A model generated the notes under the pieces. That model did no database searches. It saw nothing but the letters and a program-made list of their open reading frames with translations, and was not told the origin of the DNA. Both the position numbers and the translations under genes were made by a program. A stretch of 64,000 bases of DNA from Escherichia coli (GTDB lineage: Bacteria; Pseudomonadota; Gammaproteobacteria; Enterobacterales; Enterobacteriaceae), in NCBI RefSeq assembly GCF_050920415.1, contig NZ_CP169309.1; one strand, given 5' to 3'. This document shows, piece after piece, positions 5,226-56,053 of this stretch; positions within the stretch are counted from its first letter, which is position 1; each line of letters begins with the position of its first letter.

Positions 5226-6338
5226 TTATTTTCCGCTCTTCACTTTGGTCCACGCGCGGGTGCGCACACGGTCGATTTTCGGATCCTGCACTTTCAGAGT
5301 GAACAGCTTCGCACGGACATCCGCAGGCGGGTAAATACCGGGGTTATCACGCACTTCCGCGCTTACCAGCGGCGTAGCTTCTTTGTTCGCGTTGGCATAG
5401 AACACATGGTCAGAGATATGCGCTACGACATCCGGACGCAGCAGGTAATTCAGGAACTGATAAGCTTCGTCTTTATTTTTGGCATCCGCAGGCATGGCAA
5501 ATACATCAAAGAATGCCATCGCCCCTTCTTTCGGAATCGAGAACGAGACATTAACGCCATTCTTCGCTTCCTTCGCGCGGTTTGACGCCTGCCAGACATC
5601 GCCCGCCCAGCCAATAGCGACGCAGATATCGCCGTTTGCCAGGTCGTTAATGTATTGAGATGAATGGAAATAACGAATGTTCGGGCGCAGCTTTAACAGC
5701 AGATCGGTTGCCGGTCCGGTGTAATCATCTGCTTTAGTGCTGTTGGGATCTTTACCGAGATAATTCAGCACGGTAGCAAACACTTCTTCCGGTGCATCAA
5801 GGAAAGAGACGCCGCAGCTTTTCAGTTTTTCCAGATTTTCAGGTTTGAGGATCAAGTCCCAGCTATCGACGGGCGCGTTTTCGCCCAGCACCGCTTTAAC
5901 TTTATCGACGTTATAACCAATCCCGGTCGTCGCCCACATATAGGGCATAGCAAATTTATTGTCGGGATCGTGTTTGGCGACCAACTTCAGCAGTTCCGGG
6001 TCGAGATTCTTCCACTCCGGCAATTTGCTTTTATCCAGCGGCTGGAAAACTCCCGCAGTCAACTGGCGCTCCAGAAAGCTGGCAGATGGAACCACCAGGT
6101 CAAAGCCGGTGCTCCCTGCCATTAATTTGCCTTCCAGTACTTCGTTAGAGTCGAAAACATCGTAGACGACTTTAATACCGGTTTCTTTTTCAAAATTGGC
6201 CACCGTGTCCGGGGCGATATAATCAGACCAGTTATAAATGTGGAGTGTTTTTTGTTCAGCCGCGAGCGTGCCGACAGAGACGGCCATCAGAGCACCCGCA
6301 ACCAGACCCGATAGCCATTTTTTATTTAAGGCGGTCAT
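5226..6338 (-). CDS. potF: Putrescine-binding periplasmic protein PotF
   Basis: Internal start MTALNKKWLSG with signal peptide gives 370 aa; the track ORF has a 50-aa N-terminal extension. Confidence 0.94.
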   Translation of the reverse strand: MTALNKKWLSGLVAGALMAVSVGTLAAEQKTLHIYNWSDYIAPDTVANFEKETGIKVVYDVFDSNEVLEGKLMAGSTGFDLVVPSASFLERQLTAGVFQPLDKSKLPEWKNLDPELLKLVAKHDPDNKFAMPYMWATTGIGYNVDKVKAVLGENAPVDSWDLILKPENLEKLKSCGVSFLDAPEEVFATVLNYLGKDPNSTKADDYTGPATDLLLKLRPNIRYFHSSQYINDLANGDICVAIGWAGDVWQASNRAKEAKNGVNVSFSIPKEGAMAFFDVFAMPADAKNKDEAYQFLNYLLRPDVVAHISDHVFYANANKEATPLVSAEVRDNPGIYPPADVRAKLFTLKVQDPKIDRVRTRAWTKVKSGK

Positions 6339-6624
6339 ATCTCTTTCCTTCTGAAAGTTCGTTAACAAACGAACAAAAGTTGTCACACTGAAAGATATGC
6401 AATATTCGTGCATATTTTTTATCGGCTCGGTGTAAGAAAAGAGAACTCTCTCCCGGCCAGCACTGCTCGCTATATAAAAGCATCGCAAGAATAACTTTAG
6501 CCAGGGTTTGAGACTATAGCTCGGATTAAAAAACGGTATTTAACAAATTTTTATGCGTATTTGCTCTATGTGATAAAGCCAAATCGGCACAAGAGAAGTG
6601 AAATAATCTTTAAGAAAAGGTTAA

Positions 6625-6680
6625 AAACAGCAGATAATTTTGCAGCACGCAGTCACTGCGGCAGCGACTGCGTGCTCGAA
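6625..6680 (-). terminator. Putative terminator hairpin downstream of ybjN
   Basis: Near-perfect 16-bp inverted repeat AGCACGCAGTCACTGC / GCAGCGACTGCGTGCT at 6643-6676, followed on the minus strand by a T-rich stretch. Confidence 0.4.
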
Positions 6681-6688
6681 AGGAGTTA

Positions 6689-7165
6689 TCAGTGGAGGAA
6701 ATAGTTTTCGGTAACGTTGTTTTGCCCTTCATCGTCAGTCGGTAACAGCAGTTGATGGGCATTAGCTTCAAGAATGACCATCGAAATCTGCTCTTCGCTC
6801 TGACGCACGAACCATGCAAACTGCTCATAGGTTACGCCCTGCATAACGGATAAAGACTGGCAAACCACCAGCTTTGGCAGATTATCATCCTGCATATCAA
6901 GAAATGCTTTCACGGTCAGCGAACTGGCATTGATGGCTGATAAATCCGCCGCCAGCGGTAACACGGCTGAAGGTCGAACTTCCGCCATGGCAGAAAACAG
7001 GATCGTGTTATCGATCAGATCGATTTTGGCATCAAAGACACCGTCGAAATTCTGCATATGGGGCAGATGCAGAGCCTGACAGTTATCACATTCAAAAAAA
7101 CTCATCCCCAGGTCATCGAGCCATTGACGCAGCGTATCCAGACCAGGAACGACCAGCGATGTCAT
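6689..7165 (-). CDS. ybjN: YbjN, putative sensory transduction regulator
   Basis: Internal start MTSLVVPGLD gives 158 aa matching recalled YbjN. Confidence 0.9.
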   Translation of the reverse strand: MTSLVVPGLDTLRQWLDDLGMSFFECDNCQALHLPHMQNFDGVFDAKIDLIDNTILFSAMAEVRPSAVLPLAADLSAINASSLTVKAFLDMQDDNLPKLVVCQSLSVMQGVTYEQFAWFVRQSEEQISMVILEANAHQLLLPTDDEGQNNVTENYFLH

Positions 7166-7252
7166 AATTTTGTACAACCTCTTTCGATAAAAAGACCGGC
7201 ACAGCTTACGCAAAAAGCGCAGGCAAAACCATGATCAGTAATGTGATTGCGA

Positions 7253-8155
7253 CTAACCACCCGTTTTCAGGCAATATTCGGTCGTAGCGTGGCGTTCGAT
7301 CCAGCGGATCATTTTACCCGCGATGTCAATACCGGTGGTTTTTTCTATTCCTTCCAGCCCCGGCGACGCATTCACCTCCATCACCAATGGCCCGCGATTA
7401 GCACGCAGAATATCCACACCAGCAACGTCCAGCGCCATCGTTCGCGCGGCTTTTATCGCGATTTCACGCTCCTGTGGTGTGATACTGGCAACGCTTGCCG
7501 CGCCACCTCGATGCAAATTGGAACGAAAATCGCCCTCTTTCGCCCGCCGTTCAATCGCAGCGACCACTTCATCGCCAACAACCAGGCAGCGGATATCGCA
7601 CCCTTGCGCCTCTTTGATATATTCCTGCACCAGAATATGCGCGTTCAGACCGCGAAAGGCGTCAATCACGCTTTCCGCCGCCTGACGCGTCTCCGCCAGC
7701 ACGACACCAATTCCCTGCGTACCTTCAACCAGCTTAACCACCAGCGGCGCACCACCGACCATGTCGATTAAATCGCTGGTATCATCCGGCGAATGCGCAA
7801 TGCCCGTGACAGGCAGGTCGATGCCCTGACGCGCCAGCAGTTGCATCGAACGCAATTTGTCACGCGCCCGGGCAATGGCGACCGACTCATTGAGCGGATA
7901 GCTCCCCAGCATCTCGAACTGGCGCAGTGCCGCCGTCCCATAAAAGGTAATGGCGGTGCCAATACGCGGGATCACAGCGTCAAAATGGGGTAACTTGCGG
8001 CCTTTGTAGTGAATAGAAGACGCCGCAGGATTTATGTTCATGTAGCAAGAAAGCGGATCAAGAATTTCAACCAGGTGACCACGCTGTACAGCGGCTTCAC
8101 GCAGCCGCTTACACGAATAGAGCGTTCCATCCCGGGACAATATGGCAATTTTCAC
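7253..8155 (-). CDS. rimK: Ribosomal protein S6 glutamate ligase RimK (ATP-grasp)
   Basis: 300-aa ORF starting [10 protein letters not shown]; ATP-grasp motifs; matches recalled RimK. Confidence 0.95.
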
Positions 8156-12064: not shown

Positions 12065-12143
12065 GCCACTGCTTTTCTTTGATGTCCCCATTTTGTGGAG
12101 CCCATCAACCCCGCCATTTTGGTTCAAGGTTGGTGGGTTTTTT
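12065..12143 (+). ncRNA. rybB: RybB small RNA (sigma-E dependent, Hfq-binding)
   Basis: GCCACTGCTTTTCTTTGATGTCCCCATTTTGTGGAGCCCATCAACCCCGCCATTTTGGTTCAAGGTTGGTGGGTTTTTT matches recalled RybB almost exactly, including the terminator hairpin and U-run; lies in the ybjL-rcdA intergenic region as in K-12. Confidence 0.85.
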
Positions 12144-12162
12144 GTTATCTAAAATTTATCTA

Positions 12163-12699
12163 CTACCCTGCAACCCTCTCAACCATCCTCAAAATCTCCT
12201 CGCGCGATAGCGGCTTACGGTCGGTGACAAAATGCAGCGTCATCCCCTCAATAAACGCATCAAGCGCGCGGGCGGTTCCGGGTTCAAACCATTGTTCGAG
12301 CGTTTGCTGACTGCGCTGCATCCAGTTTTGCATTACCGTTTTTAATAGCGGTTTTCGGCTAGCCAGCGCGTAGAGCTGGTACATCAGCTCCATGTTATCC
12401 GGCGTTGCAACCTGTGAGCTGTAGATCATATCGGTGATAGCCTGGCATGCGCCCGGAGCATCACTAACATCGCTAAAAAATGCCTGATATTGCCGGGACA
12501 TGATCTCAGTAAAACTGCTGAACGCCTCCAGCAACAACTCATCAATTCCTGAAAAATAGTAGGTCATCGACCCCAACGGTACCCCGGCAAGGGTAGCAAT
12601 TTTGCGGTGCGTAACGGCATGTATTCCGTAAAGTTTCACCGCCTCCAGCGTGGCCTGGATAATTTTTTCTCGCCGTTGCGGATCGTTAGCGCGACGCAT
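12163..12699 (-). CDS. rcdA: TetR-family transcriptional regulator RcdA (YbjK)
   Basis: Internal start [13 protein letters not shown] gives 178 aa; TetR HTH region; the track ORF is 10 codons longer. Confidence 0.9.
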
Positions 12700-35749: not shown

Positions 35750-35840
35750 CCCCAGGCCTGATAAGTCGCGACAAGCGTCGCATCAGGCATTTGCTCCAGA
35801 CGCCAGATGCGGCGTGAACGCCTTATCTGGCCTACGGTTC
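35750..35840. repeat. REP/BIME-type extragenic palindromes
   Basis: AGGCCTGATAAG...GCATCAGGCA and GCCAGATGCGGCGTGAACGCCTTATCTGGCCTAC between moeB and fsaA. Confidence 0.6.
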
Positions 35841-41162: not shown

Positions 41163-42422
41163 ATGACTTTTACCTATGAGACACTGCCAACAGATGCGAA
41201 AACGGCTATCCGTAAGATGAAAGCGGAGCTGCGACAACAGATCGGCGATGTACAACAGGTCTTCGATAAACTCTCTGCAAAAATCGAAGCACGTGTAGCA
41301 GAAATAGACGCCCTCAAAGGGCAAGGATTACCGGTTTGGCCGGAAGTCCCATATAGCGACGTTGCAGCAGGTACAGTGAGTGAAGCCACGCGCAATGAAA
41401 TTAAACGTCGCGGCTGTGCAGTAATTAAAGGCCATTTCCCCCGCGAACAGGCACTGGCATGGGATCGCGCAATGCTTGACTATCTTGATGCCAATCATTT
41501 TGATGATGTTTATAAAGGTCCCGGCGACAGCTTCTTTGGATCGCTGGAGGCATCTCGTCCTGAAATCTACCCTATTTACTGGTCGCAGGCACAAATGCAG
41601 GCGCGACAAAGTGACAATATGGCGGCGGTGCAATCTTTCCTTAACCGCCTGTGGAAGTCTGAAAGCAACGGCAGGCAGTGGTTTGATCCCGATATTAGCG
41701 TGATCTATCCGGACAGGATCCGCCGCCGCCCACCAGGCACGACGTCTAAAGGTCTGGGTGCACACACTGATTCTGGGGCGCTGGAACGTTGGTTATTACC
41801 CGCTTATCAGCGTGTTTTTGCCCATGTTTTCAACGGTAATGTCGACGATTACGATCCGTGGGATGCTGCATACCGTACTGATGTTGAAGAGTACACGGTG
41901 GATAACACCACAAAATGTTCGGTGTTCCGCACTTTTCAAGGCTGGACGGCGCTTTCCGATATGTTACCAGGACAGGGATTATTGCATGTGGTGCCAATCC
42001 CGGAAGCGATGGCGTATGTTTTATTGCGCCCACTGCTGGATGACGTACCGGACGATGAGTTGTGTGGGGTCGCTCCTGGCAAAGTTCTGCCCATTTCAGA
42101 GAAATGGCATCCACTACTGATTAAAGCACTCACTTCCATTCCAGCTATTACAGCGGGGGATTCCGTCTGGTGGCACTGCGACGTGATCCACTCCGTCGCA
42201 CCGGTAAATAATCAACAAGGCTGGGGGAACGTGATGTATATCCCTGCCGCGCCGATGTGTGAGAAAAACCGGGCTTATGCGCATAACGTCAGGAAAGCAC
42301 TGGAAAAAGGGGCATCACCGGGCGATTTCCCTCGAGAAGATTATGAAACAAACTGGGATGGCCGATTTACGCTGGATGATCTGAACATTCACGGTAAGCG
42401 CGCGCTGGGCATGGATGTTTGA
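41163..42422 (+). CDS. ybiU: DUF1479-family protein YbiU
   Basis: 419-aa ORF; synteny and recalled similarity. Confidence 0.88.
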   Translation: MTFTYETLPTDAKTAIRKMKAELRQQIGDVQQVFDKLSAKIEARVAEIDALKGQGLPVWPEVPYSDVAAGTVSEATRNEIKRRGCAVIKGHFPREQALAWDRAMLDYLDANHFDDVYKGPGDSFFGSLEASRPEIYPIYWSQAQMQARQSDNMAAVQSFLNRLWKSESNGRQWFDPDISVIYPDRIRRRPPGTTSKGLGAHTDSGALERWLLPAYQRVFAHVFNGNVDDYDPWDAAYRTDVEEYTVDNTTKCSVFRTFQGWTALSDMLPGQGLLHVVPIPEAMAYVLLRPLLDDVPDDELCGVAPGKVLPISEKWHPLLIKALTSIPAITAGDSVWWHCDVIHSVAPVNNQQGWGNVMYIPAAPMCEKNRAYAHNVRKALEKGASPGDFPREDYETNWDGRFTLDDLNIHGKRALGMDV

Positions 42423-42509
42423 GAGGTGATGGATTAGTAGAAGTGAATTGATGTGAGGTTAAGAAAGCAGGTTCGGTGTTGCTCAGATTGCTGACAAAGT
42501 GCGCTTTGT

Positions 42510-42615
42510 TCATGCCGGATGCGGCGTGACCGTCTTATCCGACCTACAAAATCATGCAAATTCAATATATTGCGATACACTGTCAGGCCTGATAAGCGTA
42601 GCGCATCAGGCAATT
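42510..42615. repeat. REP/BIME-type extragenic palindromes
   Basis: GCCGGATGCGGCGTGACCGTCTTATCCGACCTAC and AGGCCTGATAAGCGTAGCGCATCAGGCA between ybiU and ybiT. Confidence 0.6.
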
Positions 42616-42671
42616 TTGCATTTGTCATCAGTTTCAGTAGCCCTGGCCATATCAGGGCTACTGATAATAAC

Positions 42672-44264
42672 TTACTCGATCCCTTTACTACGCAGGTAAT
42701 CTTCGTAATTACCGCTAAAGTCGATCACGCGTTCCGGGGTGATTTCCAGAATTCGGGTCGCCAGGGAGCTTACAAACTCACGGTCGTGAGAAACAAAGAT
42801 CAGCGTGCCCTGATACAGTTCCAGCGCCATGTTCAGCGACTCAATGGATTCCATATCCAGGTGGTTGGTCGGTTCGTCCATGATCAGAATATTCGGCTTC
42901 TGCATCATTAACTTACCAAACAGCATCCGCCCTTTTTCTCCACCGGAAAGCACTTTCGCTGGCTTTTTGATGTCGTCCTGGCTGAACAGCAAACGACCGA
43001 GAATGCTGCGTACCGCCTGCTCGTCATCGCCTTCCTGCTTCCACTGACTCATCCATTCGAATACGGTCAGATCATTTTCGAACTCATATTCGTGGTCCTG
43101 GGCGTAGTAACCAATGCGCGCGTTTTCAGACCATTTTACGGTGCCGCTGTCCGGTTGCAGATCGCCCACCAGCGTTTTCAGCAGCGTTGATTTACCGACG
43201 CCGTTGGTACCCAGTACCGCCAGTTTTTCACCCACTTCCAGCAGCAGGTTGAGATTTTTAAACAGGGGACCGTTATCAAACCCTTTGGTCAGATCTTCCA
43301 CTTCCAGCGCGTTACGGAACAGTTTCTTATCCTGTTCAAAACGGATGAACGGGTTCTGACGGCTGGAGGCTTTCACCTCTTCAAGTTTGATTTTATCAAT
43401 CTGGCGTGCGCGCGAAGTTGCCTGGCGAGATTTCGAGGCGTTGGCACTAAAGCGGCTAACGAAAGATTGCAACTCAGCAATCTGCGCTTTCTTCTTGGCG
43501 TTATCAGCCAGCAGACGTTCACGCGCCTGAGTCGCCGCCGTCATGTACTCATCGTAGTTGCCCGGATAAACGCGCAGTTCACCGTAATCCAGATCCGCCA
43601 TGTGGGTACAAACCATGTTAAGGAAGTGACGGTCGTGCGAGATGATGATCATGGTGCTGTCACGCTCGTTCAGCACCTGTTCCAGCCAACGAATGGTGTC
43701 GATGTCGAGGTTGTTGGTCGGTTCGTCGAGCAGGAGAATGTCCGGATCAGCAAACAGCGCCTGCGCCAGCAGCACACGCAGCTTCCAGCCAGGAGCAACT
43801 TCACTCATCGGGCCGTAGTGCTGTTCCACTGGAATTCCCACGCCAAGCAACAGTTCACCAGCGCGAGCTTCCGCAGAGTAACCGTCCATTTCGCCGTATT
43901 TCACTTCCAGATCGGCCACTTTATAGCCGTCTTCTTCACTCATTTCCGGCAAAGCATAGATGCGGTCGCGCTCCTGCTTCACTTCCCACAACTCTTTATG
44001 CCCCATGATCACCGTATCCAGCACGGTGAACTCTTCAAAGGCAAACTGATCCTGACGCAATTTACCAATGCGCTCGTTGGGATCGAGGGAAACGTTACCC
44101 AGCGTCGGCTCTAAGTCGCCGCCAAGGATCTTCATAAAGGTGGATTTACCACTACCGTTCGCGCCAATCAGGCCGTAACGGTTGCCGCCGCCAAACTTGA
44201 CGGAAATGTTTTCAAACAACGGCTTACTGCCGAACTGCATGGTGACGTTACTGGAAACTAACAC
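42672..44264 (-). CDS. ybiT: ABC-F family ATPase YbiT
   Basis: 530-aa ORF with two ABC cassettes (GANGSGKST and GTNGVGKST) and no TM domain. Confidence 0.93.
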
Positions 44265-44482
44265 AGGCGTATCCTGAAAAGAGATATGACAAACCGCGTA
44301 TTATGCCATAAGTCTGAAAGAAGATCCCGTCCCCCGCTTAAGGTCTACACTCTTCCCAAAGGCAAAAAATGTGATTTCGTACACATCTGATTTCACTGTG
44401 AGCTGGAATGAACTTATAATGCGCTTCCAATACTCTAATATTCTCAACCCAATGGCCTGCCAGGCACAAAATCTCGCTTAAC

Positions 44483-45403
44483 ATGAATATGAAATTGAAA
44501 ACATTATTCGCAGCGGCCTTCGCTGTTGTCGGCTTTTGCAGTACCGCCTCTGCGGTAACTTATCCTCTGCCAACCGACGGGAGTCGCCTGGTTGGTCAGA
44601 ATCAGGTGATCACCATTCCTGAAGGTAACACTCAGCCGCTGGAGTATTTTGCCGCCGAGTACCAGATGGGTCTTTCCAACATGATGGAAGCTAACCCGGG
44701 TGTGGATACCTTCCTGCCGAAAGGCGGTACTGTACTGAACATTCCGCAGCAGCTGATCCTGCCGGATACCGTTCATGAAGGCATTGTCATTAACAGCGCA
44801 GAGATGCGTCTCTATTACTATCCGAAAGGCAGCAACACCGTTATCGTGCTGCCCATCGGCATTGGTCAGTTAGGCAAAGACACGCCTATCAACTGGACCA
44901 CCAAAGTTGAGCGTAAAAAAGCAGGCCCTACCTGGACGCCGACCGCCAAAATGCACGCAGAGTACCGCGCTGCGGGCGAACCGCTTCCGGCTGTCGTTCC
45001 GGCAGGTCCGGATAACCCGATGGGGCTGTATGCACTCTACATCGGTCGCCTGTACGCTATCCATGGCACCAACGCCAACTTCGGTATCGGCCTGCGTGTA
45101 AGTCATGGTTGTGTGCGTCTGCGTAACGAAGACATCAAATTCCTGTTCGAGAAAGTGCCGGTCGGTACTCGCGTACAGTTTATTGATGAGCCGGTAAAAG
45201 CGACCACCGAGCCTGACGGCAGCCGTTATATTGAAGTCCATAACCCGCTGTCTACCACCGAAGCCCAGTTTGAAGGTCAGGAAATTGTGCCAATTACCCT
45301 GACCAAGAGCGTGCAGACAGTAACTGGTCAGCCTGATGTGGATCAGGTCGTGCTGGATGAAGCGATCAAAAATCGTTCCGGGATGCCGGTTCGTCTGAAT
45401 TAA
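44483..45403 (+). CDS. ldtB: L,D-transpeptidase LdtB (YbiS)
   Basis: 306-aa ORF with signal peptide and catalytic SHGCVRL motif. Confidence 0.93.
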
Positions 45404-45421
45404 TCTTCAAAACTTAAATTA

Positions 45422-45451
45422 AAAGGCGGACTCATAATCCGCCTTTTTTAT
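45422..45451 (+). terminator. Rho-independent terminator after ldtB
   Basis: Hairpin AAAGGCGGACTCATAATCCGCCTTT followed by TTTATTT. Confidence 0.55.
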
Positions 45452-45461
45452 TTGCCAGCAC

Positions 45462-46580
45462 CTAGCTGGCCGGGAACATAACTAACAAAACGTATCCCAC
45501 CAGCGCCGCCCACAACAGCATCGGTATTGAATAGAGATGGAAACGCCACCAGATACGGCGATCGTTTGCCATCCGTAACGCAATCAAATTTGCCAGCGAT
45601 CCGGGTAATAAACCAAAGCCACCCACGTTTACCGCCCATGCCAGTAATAAAGACGGTGGCACATAATTGAGCAGCAAAATCGTGCTCGGCACGTTACTGA
45701 TCACCTGCGATAAACCAATTGCCGTTAACCATAATCCGGGTTCGGATAAATGGCTCACATTGCTCAACACGCCCTGCAAAGCTGGCAGTTGGGTCAGCAA
45801 ATGGACGTCGATAAACATCGCCATAAATACCAGCAGCAGAGTCCAGTCCACGCTGATCACCACGCGACGAGCCAGCAGCGCAAAGCCCGCCGCTACAATC
45901 ACCAGTCCCCACAGCTCTTGTTTTAACTCCAGCGCCGTCAGAAAGACGATATACAGCCCCAGACAACTCCACACCAGCCGCGGTTTCCACTCAGGTGTTT
46001 GCGCCCCCGTATGATATTGCAGCGCCTTTCCAGGGAAACAACACCAGCACAGTAGCAGGAGTGTCAGCATCATTGCGCCAGCCAGCGGTGCCATTTGGGC
46101 AATAAACCCGGCAAACGAAAGACCAGAACGACCCCAGATAAGAATATTTTGCGGGTTGCCAATCGGCGTCAGTAGCGAACCCGCATTGACTGCCAGCGCC
46201 TCAAAAATAATCAGTCGATTAACCGGGATCTCACACAGTCTTTTTAGTGTGATTGTCAGCGGAACAACAATAAACAGCGCGACATCGTTGGTCAGAAATG
46301 TTGAAAGCAACGCCGCCGCCAGCACCATAAACATTGCCAGCCGACGCTCAGTAGCAAAGCGGCGCACCATTTTGCGCCCCAGCACATCAAAATAACCGCT
46401 TAACTCCACACCTTTGGTCAGCAGCATCAGGCCACTGAGGGTGATGATAGTGTGCCAGTCGATAGCAGCAAGCCAGGATTTCGGTGCAAAGGGAACGAAA
46501 AAACTTAATCCGATGCCAACAAGAATTAATAACTGAAAAAAGCGATCGCCTTGTAGCGTGCGTAAAAAAGGCAGGCTCAT
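45462..46580 (-). CDS. ybiR: Putative anion permease YbiR (ArsB/NhaD superfamily)
   Basis: 372-aa multi-TM ORF; ATGA overlap with the mntR stop. Confidence 0.9.
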
Positions 46581-47044
46581 TTGGCACCGTGTTTCTGGGT
46601 AAACAAACGAAAGGCATCCAGCGTCTCTTCACTGACATGGTGCTCCATGCCTTCCGCGTCGCGACGAGCGATTTCCGGGCTGACGCCCAACACCAACAAG
46701 AAATTTTCGACTATCTGATGTCGCTCGCGGCTTTCCTGCGCCAGTTTCTCTCCTTCTGCCGTTAAAAACACGCCACGCCAGGGGATCATTTCAATCAGCC
46801 CCATGGTTGCCAGTCGTTTGAGCATTTTAGCCACCGTCGGTTGCGAAACGCCCAGACGAGCAGCCATGTCCACCTGACGAGCTTCCCCCACTTCCCTGAT
46901 CAAGTCAGAAATCAGCTCAACGTAATCATCAATAAGCTCGCGCCGGTGTGCCTCTCTGACCTGGCGGAACCCTTCAACGTGCTCTTCCACATTCACTAAC
47001 TGCGTCACTTTTTTTGCTGTTGGCGTACCTGCGCGACGACTCAT
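46577..47044 (-). CDS. mntR: Manganese-responsive transcriptional regulator MntR (DtxR family)
   Basis: 155-aa [25 protein letters not shown] matching recalled MntR. Confidence 0.95.
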
Positions 47045-47409
47045 TGTGCTTCCTCATTATGGTGACGCATACATAGCGTTCTCATTTCGTGCGCACATTG
47101 TAAACCAGAGTTGCGAAGGTACAAAAAATTAACGTTTTAGCAATAGCTATATAATATAGCTTTGGACCCCAATAAAAACCAAATGAAAACAATTAATTAT
47201 GAAAGAAATATCATTGTAATGTCGCAAGAATGTCGCAGAATTTTGAATTTTACATCAAACAGAAATCTTACATAAGTCGTCGAAAAGGAAAACTACCAAT
47301 ATCTTTTCGGTGTTTCCTTTCCCCAAATGGAATTTTTCCTGTTATGCTAATATTCGTTTTAAGGTGTTGATAACTAACATTACACAAAGCAATTAGAACG
47401 GATACTAAC

Positions 47410-48984
47410 ATGGCTAAAAACGCAAAAAACGAGAAACCAAAAAAGTTAGCTTATAGAATAAAAAGTATTAATATTGAAAAATTAAAAGGTATAAATAACT
47501 GCCCTATTTCCTTCCCAGCAGACAGGTCTGTAACTGCTATAATGGGAATTAATGGTTCAGGTAAATCAACAATATTGCACGCTCTATCATGTGTTTTCAA
47601 ACCCAAAGAAAAATCATCCCAAGAAAATAATAGATTTTCTGACTTCTTTACCCCTCACAATGAAAATAACTGGCAAGATAGTAAATTCTCAGTAAAATTT
47701 CGAGCGGGAGAGATAAAAAACAATGGTAATAAAGTCTTTTTTGAAGAAATAGATAATGAAGAAAAGAAAGATATTGTTTATGGCAAGGATAAAAGGTGGA
47801 AACCAGTTTACGCAAGAAGACTTGAAAGAGAATCTATATATATAGGATTACAAAATCTTGCAACGTTAGCTGACAATACAGGAGCATCAAGATACTCAGA
47901 ATATGAAAGAGTAGATATTTATGATAAAGATATAAAGAATCAAATGATATTAGCTCTGAATAAAATCTTAGATGCAGATTACAACGATTTGTTTGAATGC
48001 CGCACCATTAAGGGAAACAAAAAATTCATAGGCATGGTTAAAAACGGCATTGAGTATACAGAACATACTATGGGTGCTGGAGAAAAGAGAGTCTTTGAGA
48101 TAGTTAAAAATGTTTATAATGGAAAGTTAATGCCCAATGGTTTTCTAATCATTGATGAAATAGATGTTTTGCTACATGAAAGAGCTTTTCATGAATTAAT
48201 TAATTTTCTTATCGAAGAAAGCAAGTCTATGTGTTTTGAGGTTGTTTTCACAACACATAGAGAATCCATAATAAAGTTTAAAAATCAAATCAATATAGTA
48301 AGTATATGGAACATAGGGAATGGAATAGAGGCTTATCCCGGCGTTTCTGCGGATGCTCTTCGACAGATATCCAATGTAGAACCTGATATGGTCAATGTGT
48401 TTGTAGAAGACAACTTAGCAAAAACAGCACTAAATATTTTAGTTGAAAGTGAAGGTATGAATGAACAAGTTGATATCTCGCTTTTTGGTTCGGCTGAGAA
48501 TTCAGCTGTAATTTTGTCAGGACTTAAATTAACTGGCAAACGAATTGATACAAGCCTGGCAATTTTAGACGGTGATTACTATATTACCCTCCCTGAAAAG
48601 ACCAAAATGGTTGATAGAGTGTTATCTGGAACAGATAAAAAAGTAGAAAAAAAAGAAGTCTTATCAAGAATATTCCAATTCAATTTAGATGTGACTGACG
48701 TCAAAGGCTCTCCAGAAAAAAACCATCGTGATTGGTTTGAATCTATAGACGAAAACAATATTTCGGAAAATGATAAGACAATGTTTCTTAACCTGAAAAA
48801 ACATTCTACAAGTATTGGTGCTTTAACTGATTATCATGAATATTATCCAGAGTTAGCTCGAAGGTCAAAATTAGATAATATTGAGTACAAAGTTTTGAAT
48901 TATATTAGTAAGTATAGTAATAAATGGGATTTTTACATAAATGATATTAGAAATGAAATAAAAAAAGCAATTGCAGCGATCTAA
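47410..48984 (+). CDS. ABC-type ATPase fused to a TOPRIM-like domain; class-1 OLD-family-like nuclease, candidate anti-phage defence protein
   Basis: 524-aa ORF in AT-rich DNA. Walker A GINGSGKST (aa 46-54), signature-like MGAGEKR (221-227), Walker B FLIIDEID (245-252), H-loop TTHR (281-284), then a TOPRIM-like Glu (FVEDN, E333) and DxD (LDGDY, 387-389). Own terminator downstream. Confidence 0.6.
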   Translation: MAKNAKNEKPKKLAYRIKSINIEKLKGINNCPISFPADRSVTAIMGINGSGKSTILHALSCVFKPKEKSSQENNRFSDFFTPHNENNWQDSKFSVKFRAGEIKNNGNKVFFEEIDNEEKKDIVYGKDKRWKPVYARRLERESIYIGLQNLATLADNTGASRYSEYERVDIYDKDIKNQMILALNKILDADYNDLFECRTIKGNKKFIGMVKNGIEYTEHTMGAGEKRVFEIVKNVYNGKLMPNGFLIIDEIDVLLHERAFHELINFLIEESKSMCFEVVFTTHRESIIKFKNQINIVSIWNIGNGIEAYPGVSADALRQISNVEPDMVNVFVEDNLAKTALNILVESEGMNEQVDISLFGSAENSAVILSGLKLTGKRIDTSLAILDGDYYITLPEKTKMVDRVLSGTDKKVEKKEVLSRIFQFNLDVTDVKGSPEKNHRDWFESIDENNISENDKTMFLNLKKHSTSIGALTDYHEYYPELARRSKLDNIEYKVLNYISKYSNKWDFYINDIRNEIKKAIAAI

Positions 48985-48991
48985 ACCTCAT

Positions 48992-49021
48992 AAAAGGCGT
49001 AATTTATACGCCTTTTTTTAA
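48992..49021 (+). terminator. Rho-independent terminator after the OLD-like gene
   Basis: Hairpin AAAAGGCGTAATTTATACGCCTTTT followed by a T-run, 8 nt after the stop. Confidence 0.55.
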
Positions 49022-49181
49022 GGTTTAAATTATAGTTGCTAATTTCTACTCTTTGTTCCCTCTGTTCGTGCACGTTTCAGGTAGTAAGCTCTCCATCGAA
49101 CCATAGAGATTGAACGCTTTGATTTTTTTTTACATACTGTCTGAAGCTCATTTACTAAGTATTGATAGTCAGGATGACAAC

Positions 49182-49808
49182 ATGACCTCCTACGATGAAC
49201 TTAAAGAATGCATCCGCCTTGAAGTCATTGGCCATGACAAATCCTTTTCATGGCGTAAAGCGTTACTTCGTACCCGACGCAACCAGAAGAAGCACTTCCT
49301 GTTCTGGTGGCGTATCGCTTCATGGCTCTATGGCCAGAATAGTAAGTTCAAAAAGCGCATTGCCCGCAGAATTGAAAACCGCCTCAAGTACCTGCATAGC
49401 GTTGATATTTCGCTGTCATGCAAAATCGGCAAGGGTTTAAACATTGCTCATCTGAACGGTATTGTCATTACTGACAATTGCGTGATTGGTGATTTCGCCG
49501 ACCTGAAGCAAGGCATCACCATAGGGTTACGCACCGACAGTGCCGACGCGATGATAGTCATTGGTGATCATGTTGATATTGGCTGTAATTCGTCCATTCT
49601 GGGCGGCAAGGTTACGATCGGAAACAATGTCACCATTGGGGCGCATTCACTGGTACTTCAGAACATCCCCAGCGACACCGTTTATAAAAACAAGATCACG
49701 CCGGTGTATACATCCAAACTACCGCAGCAGGAATATCAGGAAAATCGGCCTTTTGTCACTGGCAAGGCGATAAAAGAAGCGTCCCGTTCCGCAGAAGCGG
49801 TGCTGTAA
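49182..49808 (+). CDS. Hexapeptide-repeat (left-handed beta-helix) acetyltransferase, CysE/WcaB-like
   Basis: Start MTSYDELKE preceded by AGGATG; the 232-aa track start at 49110 has no RBS. N-terminal helical region (RIASWLY...RIARRIENRLKYLHSVDI) then hexapeptide repeats IGKGLNIAH-GIVITDNCVIGD-ITIG-IVIGDHVDIG-VTIGNNVTIGAHSLVL. Confidence 0.6.
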   Translation: MTSYDELKECIRLEVIGHDKSFSWRKALLRTRRNQKKHFLFWWRIASWLYGQNSKFKKRIARRIENRLKYLHSVDISLSCKIGKGLNIAHLNGIVITDNCVIGDFADLKQGITIGLRTDSADAMIVIGDHVDIGCNSSILGGKVTIGNNVTIGAHSLVLQNIPSDTVYKNKITPVYTSKLPQQEYQENRPFVTGKAIKEASRSAEAVL

Positions 49809-50186
49809 TTTCGCTGAACAAATTTCAGTTATGAAGATTGCATAAATTTACGTGCAGCCCGCGCCAGCTCTTACAAGCGGGCTAATCTCTATAATGTCTG
49901 GCTTATCTCCCAACGATCCACGAACACCGCCTAAAATATAATTTTCCCTTTATTATCTGTGCGTTATGATTTTACACCGATCCTTAACAGATCCTCTTTA
50001 CTGAAAAAAATGAAATTTCTTTCAATCATTTCAGTTCCTGTTCTCCGCAAAGCCGCCAGTAATGGTGCGGTCTGGCGCTCTGGTTTGTAGAAAAATAAAA
50101 CTGAAAAAATTTCCAGATCCAGAAACCGCAGGCGGGTGCGGTGTAGCGCCGTTTTTGTCTGCGAAAGATTTATTTTGTCGGCGCAT

Positions 50187-50230
50187 CGCAGCGCCAGCGC
50201 AGCGCCAGCGCAGCGCCAGCGCAGCGCCAT
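50187..50230. repeat. Four tandem copies of an 11-bp unit CGCAGCGCCAG
   Basis: Direct reading: cgcagcgccag x3 then cgcagcgccat, in the non-coding gap between the acetyltransferase and the tail operon. Confidence 0.8.
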
Positions 50231-50315
50231 GCGCACGATCTTTTATGTGTGTTGCGTTGGGTTAATTTGTTGCCTGAAGTGCTGAGGGCGCGTTCTGCTG
50301 CGTCTGAGGAAGGGT

Positions 50316-50342
50316 ATGAAAAAGCCCGCATTATGCGGGCGT
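50316..50342 (-). terminator. Rho-independent terminator at the end of the tail operon
   Basis: On the minus strand, hairpin GCCCGCATAATGCGGGC followed by TTTTTC, 10 nt after the stop of the 567-aa gene. Confidence 0.5.
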
Positions 50343-50352
50343 GTTGTCATGG

Positions 50353-52056
50353 TCAGGCAATTATATTCTGGTACTTGCTCCGGGTCTGCCCTGCTTTCGT
50401 CGCCGTCTGTACGAACGCGTCAGCATTGGTTGGCGTCCCAACAGTGGGGTGTGAATGGTTCGCGCATTGCTGCGCCAGCTCTGCCAGTAAATCAATGGTA
50501 TCCAGCATCATGGTCAGGGCGTTGATACTCTCGCTGCCAATATGGACAGTTGCCCCCATGACCTGCTGACCGCCAGCGGCCACTGATTTACGCAGTGCGG
50601 CAATCTTCTCTGTCAGGCTTTCGCCAACCTCCACGGCTACAGCACCGCCCACTTTAGTGGACTGCTGTCCTGCTATGTCCGTTTCTTCGTTTCCTTCAAT
50701 ACTGGCCAGCCTGTTTCCTTTCACCGCCTGGCTATAATCACCGGCGCTTACCTGCTGGATGGCTCCGGCCAGCAGTGTGGCGGTTCCCAGTACCGTGGTT
50801 TTATCCGTGGCTTTCACCGTGGTTTCACGGCTGACCAGTTCGCGCTGTTCCGTATCGGCTTTTACGGTTCGCGCCATCGATGTTTCGCTGATGGTCTGAT
50901 CGGTCTGCCTTACCCAGTCGCCCGCCTGAGTCACCCTCTGGGATACTTCTTCCCGCTGCTGCTGCAACTGTTCACCGGGTTTAACGTCCGGCAGACTGGT
51001 GCCATCCGGTAGCGTCTGCCTGATAAAAGGTTTATCCGGTCTGCCTCCCGTGAATGCAACCTCAACCAGCGTCCCTTCTGGCGGAAACTGAAACATACCT
51101 GAATCATTCCCGGCCATTGGTACCGGCAGCGGCACCGCTGAATAAACAGGCGTCTGATTGTCCGGGTTTCCGTCTGCGTCAAGCAGCTGCACGTCCACGG
51201 CGTAACGTGGCCGGAAGGGATCGGCAAAGTTACCGCTTTTTACCGGCTCTGAATGCGCCACAACTCTGGCCATCTTTGGCAAATGAAGCCCGGATGCCAG
51301 TTCCGGGTAATGGCTTTCAATCTGCCGTTGCGCCGGTGTTTTCTGCAAAGGTTTACCCGTTGCGCGGTTTCTCGGCGTCCATGTGATCGCCATCGCGTCA
51401 TTAGTCAGGTGAACTTTAGTCACGCGTTCACCGTTCATCTCCACCCCTGGCCGCATAGTCTGGATCACTGGTAATGTCACAGAGTTACCGCCAGCAGCCC
51501 CCTGGCTGAACTCTGACGGGATTTCTACGGGGCGACCGGCAAATAATGACTTTTCTGCGCCGCCGACGTAAAGCGAACCATCAGGCAACTGGTACCAGAT
51601 GTAATCCTGGATACTGAACGCCCTTCCCAGATTGTTCAGCAACTGATAACCAGTACCGTTATGGGTAAAATGTGGGATGGGGGTATCGCTGTACTGTGCA
51701 TCAGGCACACTGACCGTGATCCCGCTGTTTTCTTCCAGCCAGCTGGCAACCTCGCGTAAAGTTGGATGTTGAAATGAGCACGGCCACATCCTTTCAAATA
51801 CACCTGCCAGCTCACGAATGAACAGACGCTGAAAACCGTTTTCAGCGGGCTGCGATCGCTCCACATACCCCGTAAACCAGCGCAAAAGCAGATCGGTATA
51901 CCCCACATCCAGCCGCACCAGTTTTCCGGTGTAATCGGTTGTTGTCTCTGCGGTGATGAAGCCCCGGCCGCAGCTGTTCAGCTCCAGTACCAGGCTGGCA
52001 TCCACCAGGTGAACTTCATCAGTTGAAAGGTAAAGGCGTTTTACTGGTTTCATCAT
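50353..52056 (-). CDS. Phage tail hub/spike-like protein (gpV/VgrG-type OB-fold candidate)
   Basis: 567-aa ORF, last gene of the tail operon; internal segment GTLVEVAFTGGRPDKPFIRQTLPDG resembles the G-x-V-x-V-x-F-x-G-D-x-D-x-P-x-I motif of gpV/gp5/VgrG spikes; Ala/Gly/Thr-rich C-terminal region. Confidence 0.4.
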   Translation of the reverse strand: MMKPVKRLYLSTDEVHLVDASLVLELNSCGRGFITAETTTDYTGKLVRLDVGYTDLLLRWFTGYVERSQPAENGFQRLFIRELAGVFERMWPCSFQHPTLREVASWLEENSGITVSVPDAQYSDTPIPHFTHNGTGYQLLNNLGRAFSIQDYIWYQLPDGSLYVGGAEKSLFAGRPVEIPSEFSQGAAGGNSVTLPVIQTMRPGVEMNGERVTKVHLTNDAMAITWTPRNRATGKPLQKTPAQRQIESHYPELASGLHLPKMARVVAHSEPVKSGNFADPFRPRYAVDVQLLDADGNPDNQTPVYSAVPLPVPMAGNDSGMFQFPPEGTLVEVAFTGGRPDKPFIRQTLPDGTSLPDVKPGEQLQQQREEVSQRVTQAGDWVRQTDQTISETSMARTVKADTEQRELVSRETTVKATDKTTVLGTATLLAGAIQQVSAGDYSQAVKGNRLASIEGNEETDIAGQQSTKVGGAVAVEVGESLTEKIAALRKSVAAGGQQVMGATVHIGSESINALTMMLDTIDLLAELAQQCANHSHPTVGTPTNADAFVQTATKAGQTRSKYQNIIA

Positions 52057-52601
52057 TAACCCAAAGCATCATTGACGGGCTTCAGCACCTTGCGTTCAAA
52101 CCACGTCAGTTTTTCTTCATCTTCTCCGGCAGACTGGCCACCGGACTGTCCCGCACTGCCGGTAGTCTGTTTTTTTGCGGTCGTCTTACCTGTTGCCCTG
52201 GCCTCTCGCTTTTCCTGCACGCTGATATGTTCCGCCAGTGTGAATGTCACCAGCCAGGCCATTTTCCCGTCCTGCTGGGGTGCATCCAGCATTCCGCTGA
52301 ACGTTGCTTCACGAAAATTAACAGCACGGGCAACTTCATGCGCCACGCGGTACTTCTGACGATTACCACTGGCATCGGTAGCACTGGCCAGCTCAAAAAT
52401 ACGCTTCAGTATTTCAGGCTGTTTAAAAGGTATTTCACCGCTGATCCGCAGTTCCTTTCCCTTTGCTCCCTGCTCTGATTTTGTTGTGGCGCTGGTCTGG
52501 CCGGACTGATCTTTATCCTGAAATTGCTGTGAAACAGTCACCCGCATGTTTTTCAGCTGGATGGCCTCGCCATTAAGCGCCAGTGTCGGGATCGAAGTCA
52601 T
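52056..52601 (-). CDS. Phage protein of unknown function within the tail operon
   Basis: 181-aa ORF translationally coupled to neighbours; no recognisable motif; Lys/Gln/Gly-rich C-terminus. Confidence 0.35.
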   Translation of the reverse strand: MTSIPTLALNGEAIQLKNMRVTVSQQFQDKDQSGQTSATTKSEQGAKGKELRISGEIPFKQPEILKRIFELASATDASGNRQKYRVAHEVARAVNFREATFSGMLDAPQQDGKMAWLVTFTLAEHISVQEKREARATGKTTAKKQTTGSAGQSGGQSAGEDEEKLTWFERKVLKPVNDALG

Positions 52602-53298
52602 GAATCATTCCCTTTATTCCATCAAGATTATCGCCAACCAGCATCATGGCAGCGGTGTAAACGGCAGACTGCTGCGGAATGTCCTTCACCAGTTCCAGTA
52701 ACGTGGTGCCGGTGTCTCCGCTGGCAGTAAAAACCCACACTCTGGCACTCTTTCCCTGTAAATCATTCAGGCCGCTGGCTACATCACTGATAAGCTGGTC
52801 ACGCAGCTGCGTGAACTCGCCCAGCTGTTTTTTCAGCCCTTCGATATCAAACCCGGCATCCGCCGCCTTTTGTGCCTGGCTGATTGCCGTAGCAGATAAA
52901 GCTGCCCTGCTGGTTGGTACAGACAGCGGAATGGACGCAGGTAACGCTGCGGCGGTTTTCGCAGGGATCTGCATCTTTTCAATAGCCAGCGCTGCGGCGG
53001 ATTGCGCCAGTCGTTTGACCTGCGTGAATGCCGGGGCGGGGAAAATCCCGACCAGGTTATTCAGGCTGGCCATAAAGTTTTCCTGTGTCTGTCCGGTGAC
53101 CATCATAATCACCACGTCCGCATTCCCCCCAGTTCCGGCCAGGCGTTCAGCAAGATAGCGAACGGCATTAACCGGGCTGAGATATGCCCCGTTCGCAGTC
53201 TGCTGTCCCAGCCCATAAATCCACGGATGCGCAGGAACGATCGAACAGTTCAGCGCAGCAACAGAATCCGTGAAGGCCAGACGTGCTTCACGCCACAT
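52573..53298 (-). CDS. Phage protein of unknown function within the tail operon
   Basis: ORF 52573-53334; start chosen at MWREARL to minimise overlap with tfa; no recognisable motif. Confidence 0.3.
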   Translation of the reverse strand: MWREARLAFTDSVAALNCSIVPAHPWIYGLGQQTANGAYLSPVNAVRYLAERLAGTGGNADVVIMMVTGQTQENFMASLNNLVGIFPAPAFTQVKRLAQSAAALAIEKMQIPAKTAAALPASIPLSVPTSRAALSATAISQAQKAADAGFDIEGLKKQLGEFTQLRDQLISDVASGLNDLQGKSARVWVFTASGDTGTTLLELVKDIPQQSAVYTAAMMLVGDNLDGIKGMIHDFDPDTGA

Positions 53299-53875
53299 TT
53301 CCAGGCACCTCCGGCCACACAATTTCCGGCGCATCTTCCGGTTGAATACGGTTCAGTAAAACGCGGTATTTTTTCCAGGCGGTAAGCAGCAGTGCTTCTT
53401 CTTCAGTCGCCATGTCTAAATCAACGGCATCCTGCAATGTGGCAATGGCGTCATTGGCCTGTTTAAGCAGTCTTTTCTTTTCGGCGTCTGCCTCGCTGAC
53501 TAATGCAATTCGCATGGCCTCCGCATCATCCACCCACGCCTTACCATTCCATTTTTGCCAGGCATTAGCCGGTGCAGACGTGGTTGTCCCTTCCGGGTAA
53601 GCGCCTGGCTCGGTGATCACCAGTTCATTACCGTTTTCTGTATCAAACACCACCTCACCACGATGATCCTCACGGGAAATCCATCTTTGCTTCTCTGAAT
53701 CAAAAATTGCCACAAACCCCGCTTTGATTACCGGTGGTTTTATTGTGGTGCAGTTAGCTGGTAGTCCGGTATGCGCAGGTATAAAAGCGTCACCCGAACC
53801 AATAAATTCATTCGTGTCGGAACGCAGGTTATAAACAGTAACTATTTGATCGGTTTCACTCATTTTAAAAGTCAT
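53288..53875 (-). CDS. Tail fiber assembly protein (Tfa family)
   Basis: 195 aa; close resemblance to recalled E. coli TfaE/TfaQ-type proteins (NEFIGSGDAFIPAHTGLPAN ... KWNGKAWV ... LLTAWKKYRVLLNRIQPEDAPEIVWPEVP). Confidence 0.8.
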   Translation of the reverse strand: MTFKMSETDQIVTVYNLRSDTNEFIGSGDAFIPAHTGLPANCTTIKPPVIKAGFVAIFDSEKQRWISREDHRGEVVFDTENGNELVITEPGAYPEGTTTSAPANAWQKWNGKAWVDDAEAMRIALVSEADAEKKRLLKQANDAIATLQDAVDLDMATEEEALLLTAWKKYRVLLNRIQPEDAPEIVWPEVPGNVA

Positions 53876-55449
53876 TATGCGAGTCTCACTATGTAGTTAA
53901 ATGCAATATTCTTAACGGTCGTTTCTGCGTTGCCCGACGCGGCGACGGTAATGGTGTGGCTATGTGCGCCAATTGCCACGGTATGAGAGTGAGCGCCAAT
54001 ACCTACGGTGTGATTATGTGCACCAATGGCTACGGTGTGCGCGTGGTTTCCCGCCGAACTGGTGGCGGCTCGCCCCTGATCGCTACGTGGTACCCCCCAG
54101 TCACTACCACCTGATTGCACGTTCCCGCCATAACCAATGGTGTGCGTATGCGCTCCCGTGGTATTTGTCGTTTTCGTGCCATAGTCAAACGTGCTCGCCG
54201 TTTTAGTACCGTAATCAAAGGACGATGTTGGTTTTGTCCCCAGATCGGTACTGGATGCACTGGCTGTGTGGTCATGAGATTTATTGCCATCATCTTCATA
54301 GGAGAGAACTGCGCGACCGTCTGGCTTTCCTTTGATTGTCTGGCGGCGCATGTCAGTAATAACACCCGATGGATACGCAGCAGCCAGCAAAGGATATGCC
54401 GCCGTATTAAAAGACTGCCCCTGCATAATTGCCCATCCAGTAGGTGGGATATCCGTTGGCCATGGAAGCGGCACACCAACCGGCAGAACATCACTGCGAC
54501 TTAAAACGGCCAGTTCACCCAGATCCAGACTTTTTCTTGCTTTTACTTTGTCGTTAACATCAGCAAGGTTTGCATCCTTACGCAAAAAATCGCTGCTGGC
54601 CTGCTGTTCTCCCAGGCTACCTTTTGGCCTTAAATCCGTGATGTTGCCATCCGCATCAATGCTGGCCACAGCAAACACATAATGCTGAACCCCGTTCTGA
54701 ACGTAATCAGCAAGATTTGCAGCCACCGTGATTTTGCTCTGCACATTCCAGACACTGGTCAGCGTCCCTGTCCAGCACACATCCAGCCAGACTTTTACCG
54801 GCTTTGTCGTTACCGTAATATTCTGATTCGCAGCCAGTGACGCACGAAGTCCAGCCACATACCCCGTGCCTTTCGTGACAAAAAACTGATTTCCGGTTTT
54901 GGCTACCAGATACCCGTTACCAAAAAACGCCGCCGCGCCATAAATATCCATATTTTCCAGGCGCTGGCGCTCATCCATTCCGGCCATACGCGCTGTAAAA
55001 TCAATCTGCCATGTTTCAGCGGGTGTATTAATCCCGGTTTCCGTTTGTGCGCCGTTGTACTCCATCAGAAACGAGCGGGTCAGCACGTTCCCCTGTTGAC
55101 CTTCTTTTGTTTTCAGTTTCTGCTGTGATGGTGCATGGACAATCATTGCCAGAGTACCGCTGGCCTTATTGAGCAGACCGATCCAGTTAAAACTGAAATC
55201 ACCCACATCTGCGCCCAGCACTACGGAATAAACCACCCCGTTTTCATTCACCACACCGGTGCGGGTAACAGATTGCCGGTGAACAATCTGTGCTGTCGGG
55301 GGCAACGCTTCATTGCGGTCAACAGGTGTATCCGGGTTTAAATCCGGCACACTGGCAAAAACAAATTCATCCAGTAGTACCGGTTCACCCGTTGCGCCCT
55401 GCTGTGCTTTCCAGTTTTCAAACGCCAGTGTGATGGCTGTCTGTGACAT
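53875..55449 (-). CDS. Side tail fiber protein
   Basis: 524 aa; C-terminal HxH repeats [49 protein letters not shown] typical of Stf-family fibers; immediately upstream of tfa. Confidence 0.8.
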
Positions 55450-55459
55450 AAAAACCTCC

Positions 55460-56053
55460 TTACAAACTCGCGCTGAATGTTGCGCTGCGGGCTTCCGTCC
55501 CTGCTAACGTCGCCGGGTAAACCACATATTCCCCCTGATCCCACCCAGCCCTGATAACCAGGCTTTCAGACGTGATCACCTCAAACTGATAACGGCGGCA
55601 TGTTCGCCCGTACTGGCGGATTATCTGGATCAGCAGCTGCGTGTTGTCTGCAATCTGGCTGTCTGTAACCCGAACCAGAATCACATCCCAGTCGATATCC
55701 GGTTGCCGTTCTAACAGCTCCACATAACCAATTCCCAGCCGTTCAAAGATATTGATAAACCCCTCTACTGAACCGGCATCCCGCGCATTCACGAAGGCAA
55801 AAGCCACGCGTTTGCGGAACAGGGTCAACGGTTCACCATCAAAGCGGGTGATATCCCGGTCATAAGCCAGCAGATTCAGTAATGCCGGTGTACACGTCAG
55901 CGGATCAAACTGGTTCATTGGCCAGGTAACCCAGCCGTAAACCTCAGCCCAGAACCGCCGCGCCGCTTTCAGCAATTTCCCCGGTTCACCTTTATTCATC
56001 CAGGAAGGCAAGACCATCCCGGCCAGCTTTTTCATGAACTCATTCATTCTCAA
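55460..56053 (-). CDS. Tail protein, YmfQ/gpI-like (DUF2313-type)
   Basis: 197 aa between the baseplate J-like gene and the fiber, as for e14 ymfQ; family assignment is from memory only. Confidence 0.55.

Follow-up and report, generated by a model that had tools for sequence, protein, structure and literature searches.

Absence of mntS beside mntR in an Escherichia coli chromosome very probably reflects displacement at the left junction of a P2-like prophage

Does the absence of mntS from the neighborhood of mntR in this Escherichia coli chromosome mean that the gene has been lost? In the window (the whole 64,000-nucleotide stretch of DNA that was analyzed), the 365 bp upstream of mntR lead straight into a foreign ATPase gene, as an earlier note on this DNA had described, and the ATPase reading frame is absent from this place in 5420 of the 5421 complete genomes that match the locus. 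The same note had observed that mntS is not at its expected place beside mntR, and our searches bear this out, with no tblastn match to MntS in any frame or on either strand of the 64-kb window (the best hit, at E = 0.9, is located elsewhere) and no blastn match to the 340-nt K-12 rybA/mntS transcript. MntS itself (Pfam PF26599) is encoded by a 42-aa ORF, MNEFKRCMRVFSHSPFKVRLMLLSMLCDMVNNKPQQDKPSDK, which is absent from the window, while an identical copy is present at the right-hand attachment junction (attR) of related prophages. The 365 bp had also been described as AT-rich, and they measure 33.2% G+C, compared to 50.7% for the window as a whole. As set out below, mntS is missing beside mntR because a prophage integrated into the mntS promoter: positions 47045–47409 are very probably the left junction (attL) of a P2-like prophage of ~32.3 kb, with mntS displaced by ~32 kb and not deleted.

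The native arrangement is the same in DSM498 and in K-12 MG1655, where ybiR and mntR lie on one strand and mntS and opgE on the opposite strand; 185 bp separate the start of mntS from that of mntR, and the two genes are transcribed divergently. The rybA RNA that carries mntS is annotated in the RefSeq record of K-12 at 852725..853064 (complement), its 5' end preceding the mntS ATG by 67 nt. The K-12 layout given in the earlier note was thus right about the short distance between the two genes, but not about the orientation of mntS, which is opposite to that of mntR. Because mntS is divergent from mntR, the by-eye search for an MntS peptide had been made on the wrong strand, although its outcome holds, as neither strand encodes such a peptide. 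The coordinates of the features considered here are collected in Table 1.

Table 1. Features at and around the mntR-proximal junction, in window coordinates.
Feature	Position	Strand	Basis or remark
ybiR	45462–46580	-	3' of mntR
mntR CDS, 155 aa	46577..47044	-	ORF list; the matching stretch is annotated mntR in all E. coli genomes
Native rest of the mntR–mntS spacer, 116 of 185 bp	47045..47160	.	Identical to K-12; alignments to DSM498, K-12 and other loci
CATACATAGCG	47068..47078	.	24–34 bp upstream of the mntR ATG; native K-12 sequence
Candidate mntR -10, TACAAT	47097..47102	-	Consensus-level guess; in conserved block; scan below threshold here
MntR-box-like palindrome TTAGCAATAGCTAT (box 1)	47137..47150	+	13/14 to ATAGC-N4-GCTAT; native, mntR side
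att core TATAATATAGC, 11 bp, perfect	47150..47160	+	attL/attB/attR alignment
Phage attachment-site arm, 249 bp, 30.9% G+C	47161..47409	+	Same sequence (100%) in independent lysogens; extends to the ATPase start codon
Two direct AATGTCGC repeats, 11 bp apart	47218–47225, 47229–47236	+	Presumed arm-type integrase sites
ABC/OLD-type ATPase, 524 aa; cargo, candidate anti-phage defence	47410..48984	+	PADLOC, Pfam
Hexapeptide-repeat (serine) acetyltransferase; cargo	49182..49808	+	Also adjoins int/attP in ESSI2_ev129
Peduoviridae (P2-like) baseplate, tail fibre, tape measure, lysis, sheath and tail-completion genes	50353..64000	-	Prophage extends past the right end of the window

The alignment of the mntR upstream region with K-12 that had been suggested for finding the breakpoint was run, and places it at 47160|47161. 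In a megablast survey of positions 46577–47409 against 5,426 complete E. coli genomes, homology ends at 47160 in all but one of the 5,421 that match, and the best complete-genome match across the junction has 95.3% identity. In the alignment, the shared sequence runs up to ...TTTTAGCAATAGCTATATAATATAGC, after which the window goes on with TTTGGACCCCAATAAAAACC... and the native locus with CTGTGCTATATCTGTATG..., reaching the mntS ATG 70 bp past the break position. As homology stops at 47160, 116 of the 365 bp are therefore native and 249 bp are foreign. The corresponding empty site is found in strain MFDS1022581, the backbone of which is 100.0% identical to the window at positions 1–25000 and 42400–47160, and which has an uninterrupted spacer at the break position, followed by mntS, opgE and ompX. 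Thus, the chromosome of the window is that of this lineage with an insertion at a single position.

The core TATAATATAGC that ends at the break is found at both attL and attR in AHB29, the one complete E. coli genome to carry the same ATPase here, and also in prophages at least 99.98% identical to that of the window. It can be extended to 15 bp, GCT[A/T]TATAATATAGC from position 47146, with one mismatch, the mismatched base being the chromosomal A at attL and the phage T at attR, which places the crossover inside the 11 bp. The two direct repeats on the arm that follows the core have their counterpart on the other arm of the prophage, where a tandem pair of AATGTCGC with equal spacing lies within int, close to its 3' end (at 12344–12364 in locus L003, and at attR in loci L019–L024). 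The 8-mer alone is not rarer in the window than expected by chance (5 found against 3.5 expected), and it is from their paired arrangement in the sequence that we presume these repeats to be arm-type sites bound by the integrase. Together with the core, this layout marks the AT-rich 249 bp as a phage attachment arm and not as decayed chromosome.

In the integration event that we propose, a tyrosine integrase would recombine the 11-bp TATAATATAGC of the phage with the identical chromosomal core in the divergent mntR–mntS spacer, and the core would be duplicated, giving attL on the mntR side and attR on the mntS side. At attL, the native region would be kept up to -3 of the mntS start, and would be followed by the phage arm and the cargo genes; at attR, phage DNA with the integrase would be followed by a regenerated -10, the complete palindrome described below, the start site, and intact mntS. 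The far-end junction predicted for the genome of the window would accordingly read from the 346-aa integrase through ...GATGCTTTATAATATAGCCTGTGCTATAT... into mntS. The integrase and attP region gives weak partial matches to the phage collection searched, with a best nucleotide match of 82% over 11% of int, which sets this integrase apart from those of named phages. The exact reconstructed attP is absent from viral and metagenome contig collections, an absence which does not imply that the prophage is inactive.

Relatives of the prophage show its far end directly. In AHB29, the related prophage of ~32 kb ends with CI and a 346-aa integrase, followed by intact mntS, opgE and ompX. The integrase of the relatives has the domains Int_N and Phage_integrase, and its gene is separated by 168 bp from mntS, which lies downstream in the same orientation; in AHB29, L011 and L019–L024 the far end runs from the integrase through ...GATGCTT-TATAATATAGC-CTGTGCTATAT... 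into an intact 42-aa MntS. Among the complete genomes, the mntR–mntS spacer is unsplit in 5392 of 5421, and the other 29 all have the junction between the integrase arm and mntS together with an annotated mntS, so that every occupied complete genome keeps the gene.

Further lysogens were obtained from exact-protein look-ups of the ATPase in other assemblies, which placed the identical protein on at least 23 contigs, each time with 365 bp between its gene and mntR. None of the compared loci from these look-ups matches both the backbone and the phage of the window. Compared to the window, L005, L007 and L009 show 100% identity in the phage arm and the ATPase and 99.98–99.99% in the tail region, while the adjoining chromosome is 96.4% identical, which argues that the same phage integrated independently at the same base in different lineages. 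A related prophage occupies the same base in L006, where the backbone is 83% identical. Positions 53364–64000 of the window are 99.99% identical to L015, which is in turn 99.99–100% identical to L019, L021 and L022, and the latter three continue through capsid, terminase and replication genes, CII, CI, a KAP-family NTPase and the integrase until they reach attR, beyond which the encoded 42-aa MntS is the same as in K-12. The length of the insert is 32,281 bp, as given by the L005 and L019 ranges on one contig (JAEOES010000021.1), and mntS is intact at the far end in all listed contigs whose prophage is at least 99.98% identical.

Since the window ends inside the prophage, we infer the state of mntS in this genome from these relatives: the gene is probably intact, and its ATG would lie near a window-equivalent position of 79.5 kb, ~15.5 kb past the right edge. 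Of the two outcomes that the earlier note had considered, displacement is the one that stands, with foreign DNA starting at 47161 and separating mntR from an mntS that lies at the far end in relatives. Deletion, on the other hand, does not agree with the intact gene that follows the far end of the prophage in 29 of the 29 occupied complete E. coli genomes. An intact mntS beside the other end of the element is also what the note itself had held would refute its reading, and it is found in these 29 genomes as well as next to the near-identical prophages.

It would nevertheless be conceivable that mntS was lost or damaged in this particular genome, through the insertion or a later rearrangement, leaving a strain without MntS and with altered manganese handling. 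The gene is nowhere in the 64-kb window, and the decayed prophages with internal deletions at this site (L011, L012, 160-11H1 and PSJ-16) illustrate that rearrangements occur. We consider such a loss very improbable, however, as the 29 complete genomes with an annotated mntS at attR include decayed prophages, the gene is kept at the 6 listed contig places of the near-identical prophage and at 18 similar ones, and the prophage of the window, over the stretch that can be traced, is collinear with intact ones at 99.99% identity. An assembly chimera, or a non-phage island that arrived by transposition or homologous recombination, would account for the abrupt change in G+C at the junction, with nothing else specific pointing to it. 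The same junction, with the same spacing between mntR and the ATPase gene, recurs in at least 10 independent assemblies or metagenome contigs among the at least 23, there are no IS or transposon ends, and the structure comprises a core repeat, an integrase, repeats on the arms and the full set of P2-like genes, leaving this explanation with next to no probability. The locus is a standard P2-like prophage junction, produced by ordinary lysogeny.

In terms of its affiliation, the structural genes of the prophage resemble those of Quadragintavirus/ESSI-2-like phages, and its lysogeny module (CI, CII, Fil and integrase) is 186-like. The structural genes of the family are contiguous in the window, with Baseplate J, tape measure, sheath (DUF2586), gpR and HP1-type ORFs, and in related prophages the capsid, terminase and portal genes come next, beyond the window. 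Positions 47161–64000 match the Escherichia phages ESSI2_ev129, ev015 and ev040 (Quadragintavirus) at 96–97% over 82% of the length (96.9% for ESSI2_ev129), and the Cronobacter phage ESSI-2 (Seongnamvirus) at 76%; these phages belong to the Peduoviridae. The likeness to these phages resides in the tail, baseplate and lysis module and, in the case of ESSI2_ev129, extends to the serine acetyltransferase next to int/attP. In contrast, their integrase is a different one, and the matches begin ~2.8–3.2 kb into the 47161–64000 segment, without the stretch that holds the ATPase cargo; correspondingly, nothing in the phage collection searched matches the first ~3 kb of the insert, where the cargo genes lie.

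The ATPase matches the PADLOC profiles HEC-04 (E = 3e-33) and ATPase-Toprim_I-B (E = 1e-20), on the basis of which we assign it to the OLD/ABC-type ATPases, and also the Pfam families SMC_N, AAA_15 and AAA_21. The acetyltransferase, conserved next to int/attP in ESSI2_ev129, is also seen in several decayed prophages at this site. Between it and a 567-aa gene of the baseplate region, positions 50184–50238 hold a non-coding tandem repeat of an 11-nt unit, CAGCGCAGCGC, in ~4–5 copies. In other prophages at the site, the interval from attL to the baseplate gene holds other cargo, which may point in either direction (L027, 3553–4317; L028, 3503–5362; L029, 3575–5311), and the alternatives found at the mntR–mntS site comprise a reverse-transcriptase-domain protein, a trio of ATP-binding, STAS-like and PIN proteins, an AIPR protein, and a DUF6338 protein. 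The att-proximal cargo slot thus looks like a variable hotspot of candidate defence genes. A second accessory gene is present at the other att-proximal end, where L019 encodes, between CI and int (5573–7357), a 594-aa KAP-family P-loop NTPase that matches the PADLOC candidate PDC-S49 at E = 1e-128, and that is absent from the AHB29 prophage. Large internal deletions are found in the L011, L012, L027 and PSJ-16 prophages, both junctions and mntS being kept in each, and the remnants include, for example, the ATPase and acetyltransferase genes joined to early genes, or just ~3 kb between attL and attR.

P2 integrates at its loc sites. More broadly, P2-like prophages have been described at 13 sites in E. 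coli, with sRNA genes among the targets (Bobay et al. 2013, PMC3603311). The element at mntR–mntS shares with P2/186-type Peduoviridae integration a short core that is common to phage and chromosome and duplicated at both ends, an integrase gene that lies against one of the junctions and reads in the same direction as the CI repressor, direct repeats in tandem on each arm, a slot beside the att site in which the cargo varies, and P2-like tail, baseplate, capsid and terminase genes. It differs in an integrase/att specificity unlike that of the phages in the collection, for which the best match is the partial one given above, and in the rarity of its site: the mntR–mntS spacer, which is not named as a P2-like attachment site in the searchable literature, is occupied in just 29 of the 5421 complete E. 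coli genomes, and is yet a recurrent P2-like integrase site that has been used in more than one chromosomal lineage. The integrase/att pair may be unrecorded.

The attachment core coincides with part of the mntS promoter. In K-12, rybA is annotated to begin at the G three nt past the core, which means that the TATAAT inside the core (47150–47155) is correctly placed as the -10 of the mntS promoter, and the remaining core is the left half-site, ATAGC (47156–47160), of an ATAGC-CTGT-GCTAT palindrome (ATAGCCTGTGCTAT) that spans the mntS start. This palindrome agrees at 14 of 18 non-spacer positions with the MntR box of mntH, AAACATAGCAAAGGCTATGTTT (a box verified in K-12), and on the strength of this likeness and of the RefSeq rybA coordinates we regard it as MntR-box-like and as the putative MntR operator. 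That Mn-MntR represses mntS is established (Waters et al. 2011, as cited in PMC4361602 and PMC9806134). That the insertion cuts the regulatory region of mntS is borne out by a core that consists of the -10 and the left half of the start-site palindrome; the window keeps this left half, while the right half lies at the far end of the prophage in relatives.

A further palindrome of this kind, box 1, lies between the -35 and -10 regions, and is weaker than that at the start site; matches to ATAGC-N4-GCTAT with 1 mismatch, of which TTAGCAATAGCTAT is one, number 5 in the window against 1.6 expected. The attL junction keeps the -35 region, box 1, the -10 and the left half of the start-site palindrome, now facing the phage arm. 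In the relatives, attR again has a -10, a full palindrome, a start site and a leader in front of mntS, with phage DNA upstream of about -14. A consensus scan around the junction gave 2 promoter-like matches against 1.8 expected, with no convincing promoter or terminator, and between 47161 and the ATPase start the scan found no terminator-like site and no strong promoter on the + strand. Rfam has no match in 47045–47409.

On the mntR side, the 116 bp upstream of the gene are intact and include whatever promoter drives mntR, as well as the upstream half of the mntS promoter. In the divergent L006 locus, the block at 47095–47160 is almost invariant, while 47046–47094 has diverged, and the candidate mntR -10 of Table 1 falls in the conserved block. 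The suggestion that the insertion had changed the promoter driving mntR–ybiR is not supported, as these 116 bp are untouched, including the block conserved in L006. The earlier note had further pointed to CATACATAGCG as resembling an MntR-box half-site. This element is present, and a lone 7-nt stretch of it, ACATAGC, matches one half of the mntH box, but it has no partner, as the corresponding position reads TCATT (2 of 5 matching), and it is not recovered as ATAGC-N4-GCTAT at up to 1 mismatch in a pattern search of the window. In addition, it is replaced by CGTTAACAGCA in L006, and ACATAGC is no commoner in the window than expected by chance (6 found against 7.8 expected). As a single half-site from which no box is recovered, and which is not conserved in L006, CATACATAGCG is not regarded as an MntR operator. 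The likeness of this locus to the MntR regulon, as represented by the mntH box, thus lies in the native palindrome over the mntS start site, whereas the window retains the left half of that palindrome, and CATACATAGCG is a separate, unpaired half-site.

Prophages located within or beside host genes can act as regulatory switches in what is termed active lysogeny, as in the case of the Listeria comK prophage. The element considered here is similar in that it lies between mntS and part of its promoter, but differs in that mntS, with its -10, operator-like palindrome and start site restored by the core, is not obviously disconnected; as for reversible excision, no attP form was found in the viral or metagenome contig collections. 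A regulatory role of the insertion would be compatible with displacement of mntS by lysogeny. In such a scenario, mntS would acquire a phage -35 region and read-through from the co-oriented CI–int operon, and the orphan promoter copy at attL would face the cargo on the + strand, so that either the manganese control of mntS is altered or a host promoter drives the cargo. The composition of the core (the -10 hexamer and the left half-site) fits this possibility, as do the phage DNA upstream of -14 at attR, the short distance and shared orientation of int and mntS, the placement of the ATPase and acetyltransferase genes both on the + strand, and the lack of a terminator-like site or strong + strand promoter between 47161 and the ATPase start. 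We consider it unlikely all the same, since the -10, palindrome, start site and leader of mntS are regenerated at attR, as would be expected of a phage that minimizes damage to its target, and the native -35 is weak (TTAACG, with a 15-bp spacer), meaning that its replacement may matter little. Moreover, the orientation of the cargo is not conserved, the reverse-transcriptase gene of strain 160-11H1 pointing towards mntR, and promoter capture by the cargo was therefore rejected as a general design.

A more specific and rather doubtful version of this idea would take the phage attachment core to be the -10 and MntR operator of the mntS promoter, with lysogeny making two half-native, Mn-repressed promoter copies. 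The attL copy, with the native -35 and box 1 and without the start-site operator, could then drive the ATPase-Toprim defence gene and the acetyltransferase, while the attR copy would give mntS a phage upstream region and possibly CI–int read-through. If this were true, MntS levels, and hence MntP-mediated manganese export, would be shifted in lysogens.

Returning to lysogeny with displacement of mntS as the preferred reading, the apparent loss of a manganese-homeostasis gene is here an effect of where the window ends within an ordinary lysogen, and there is therefore no change of gene content to infer. As the core falls on the -10 and putative operator of the mntS promoter, comparison of lysogens with an empty-site strain of the same lineage, such as MFDS1022581, would offer a clean natural test of the effect of a prophage on a metal-responsive small-protein gene.

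On the chromosomal side of the junction, the ybiT–ldtB–ybiR–mntR segment (42672–47160) is ~96–97% identical to most E. coli and 100% identical to MFDS1022581, and looks like a divergent allele block or a recombination patch beside the att site. Gene content nearby also varies, with ybiU present in the window and absent in AHB29, and a LacI–MFS–GH31 island beside ybiT in L006 and L010. Finally, two Rfam matches in the window pass the gathering threshold, namely the RybB sRNA at 12068–12146 (+ strand, 104.8 bits) and naRNA4 at 35755–35832 (- strand, 73.7 bits), both of which are ordinary chromosomal features that are unrelated to the prophage junction.
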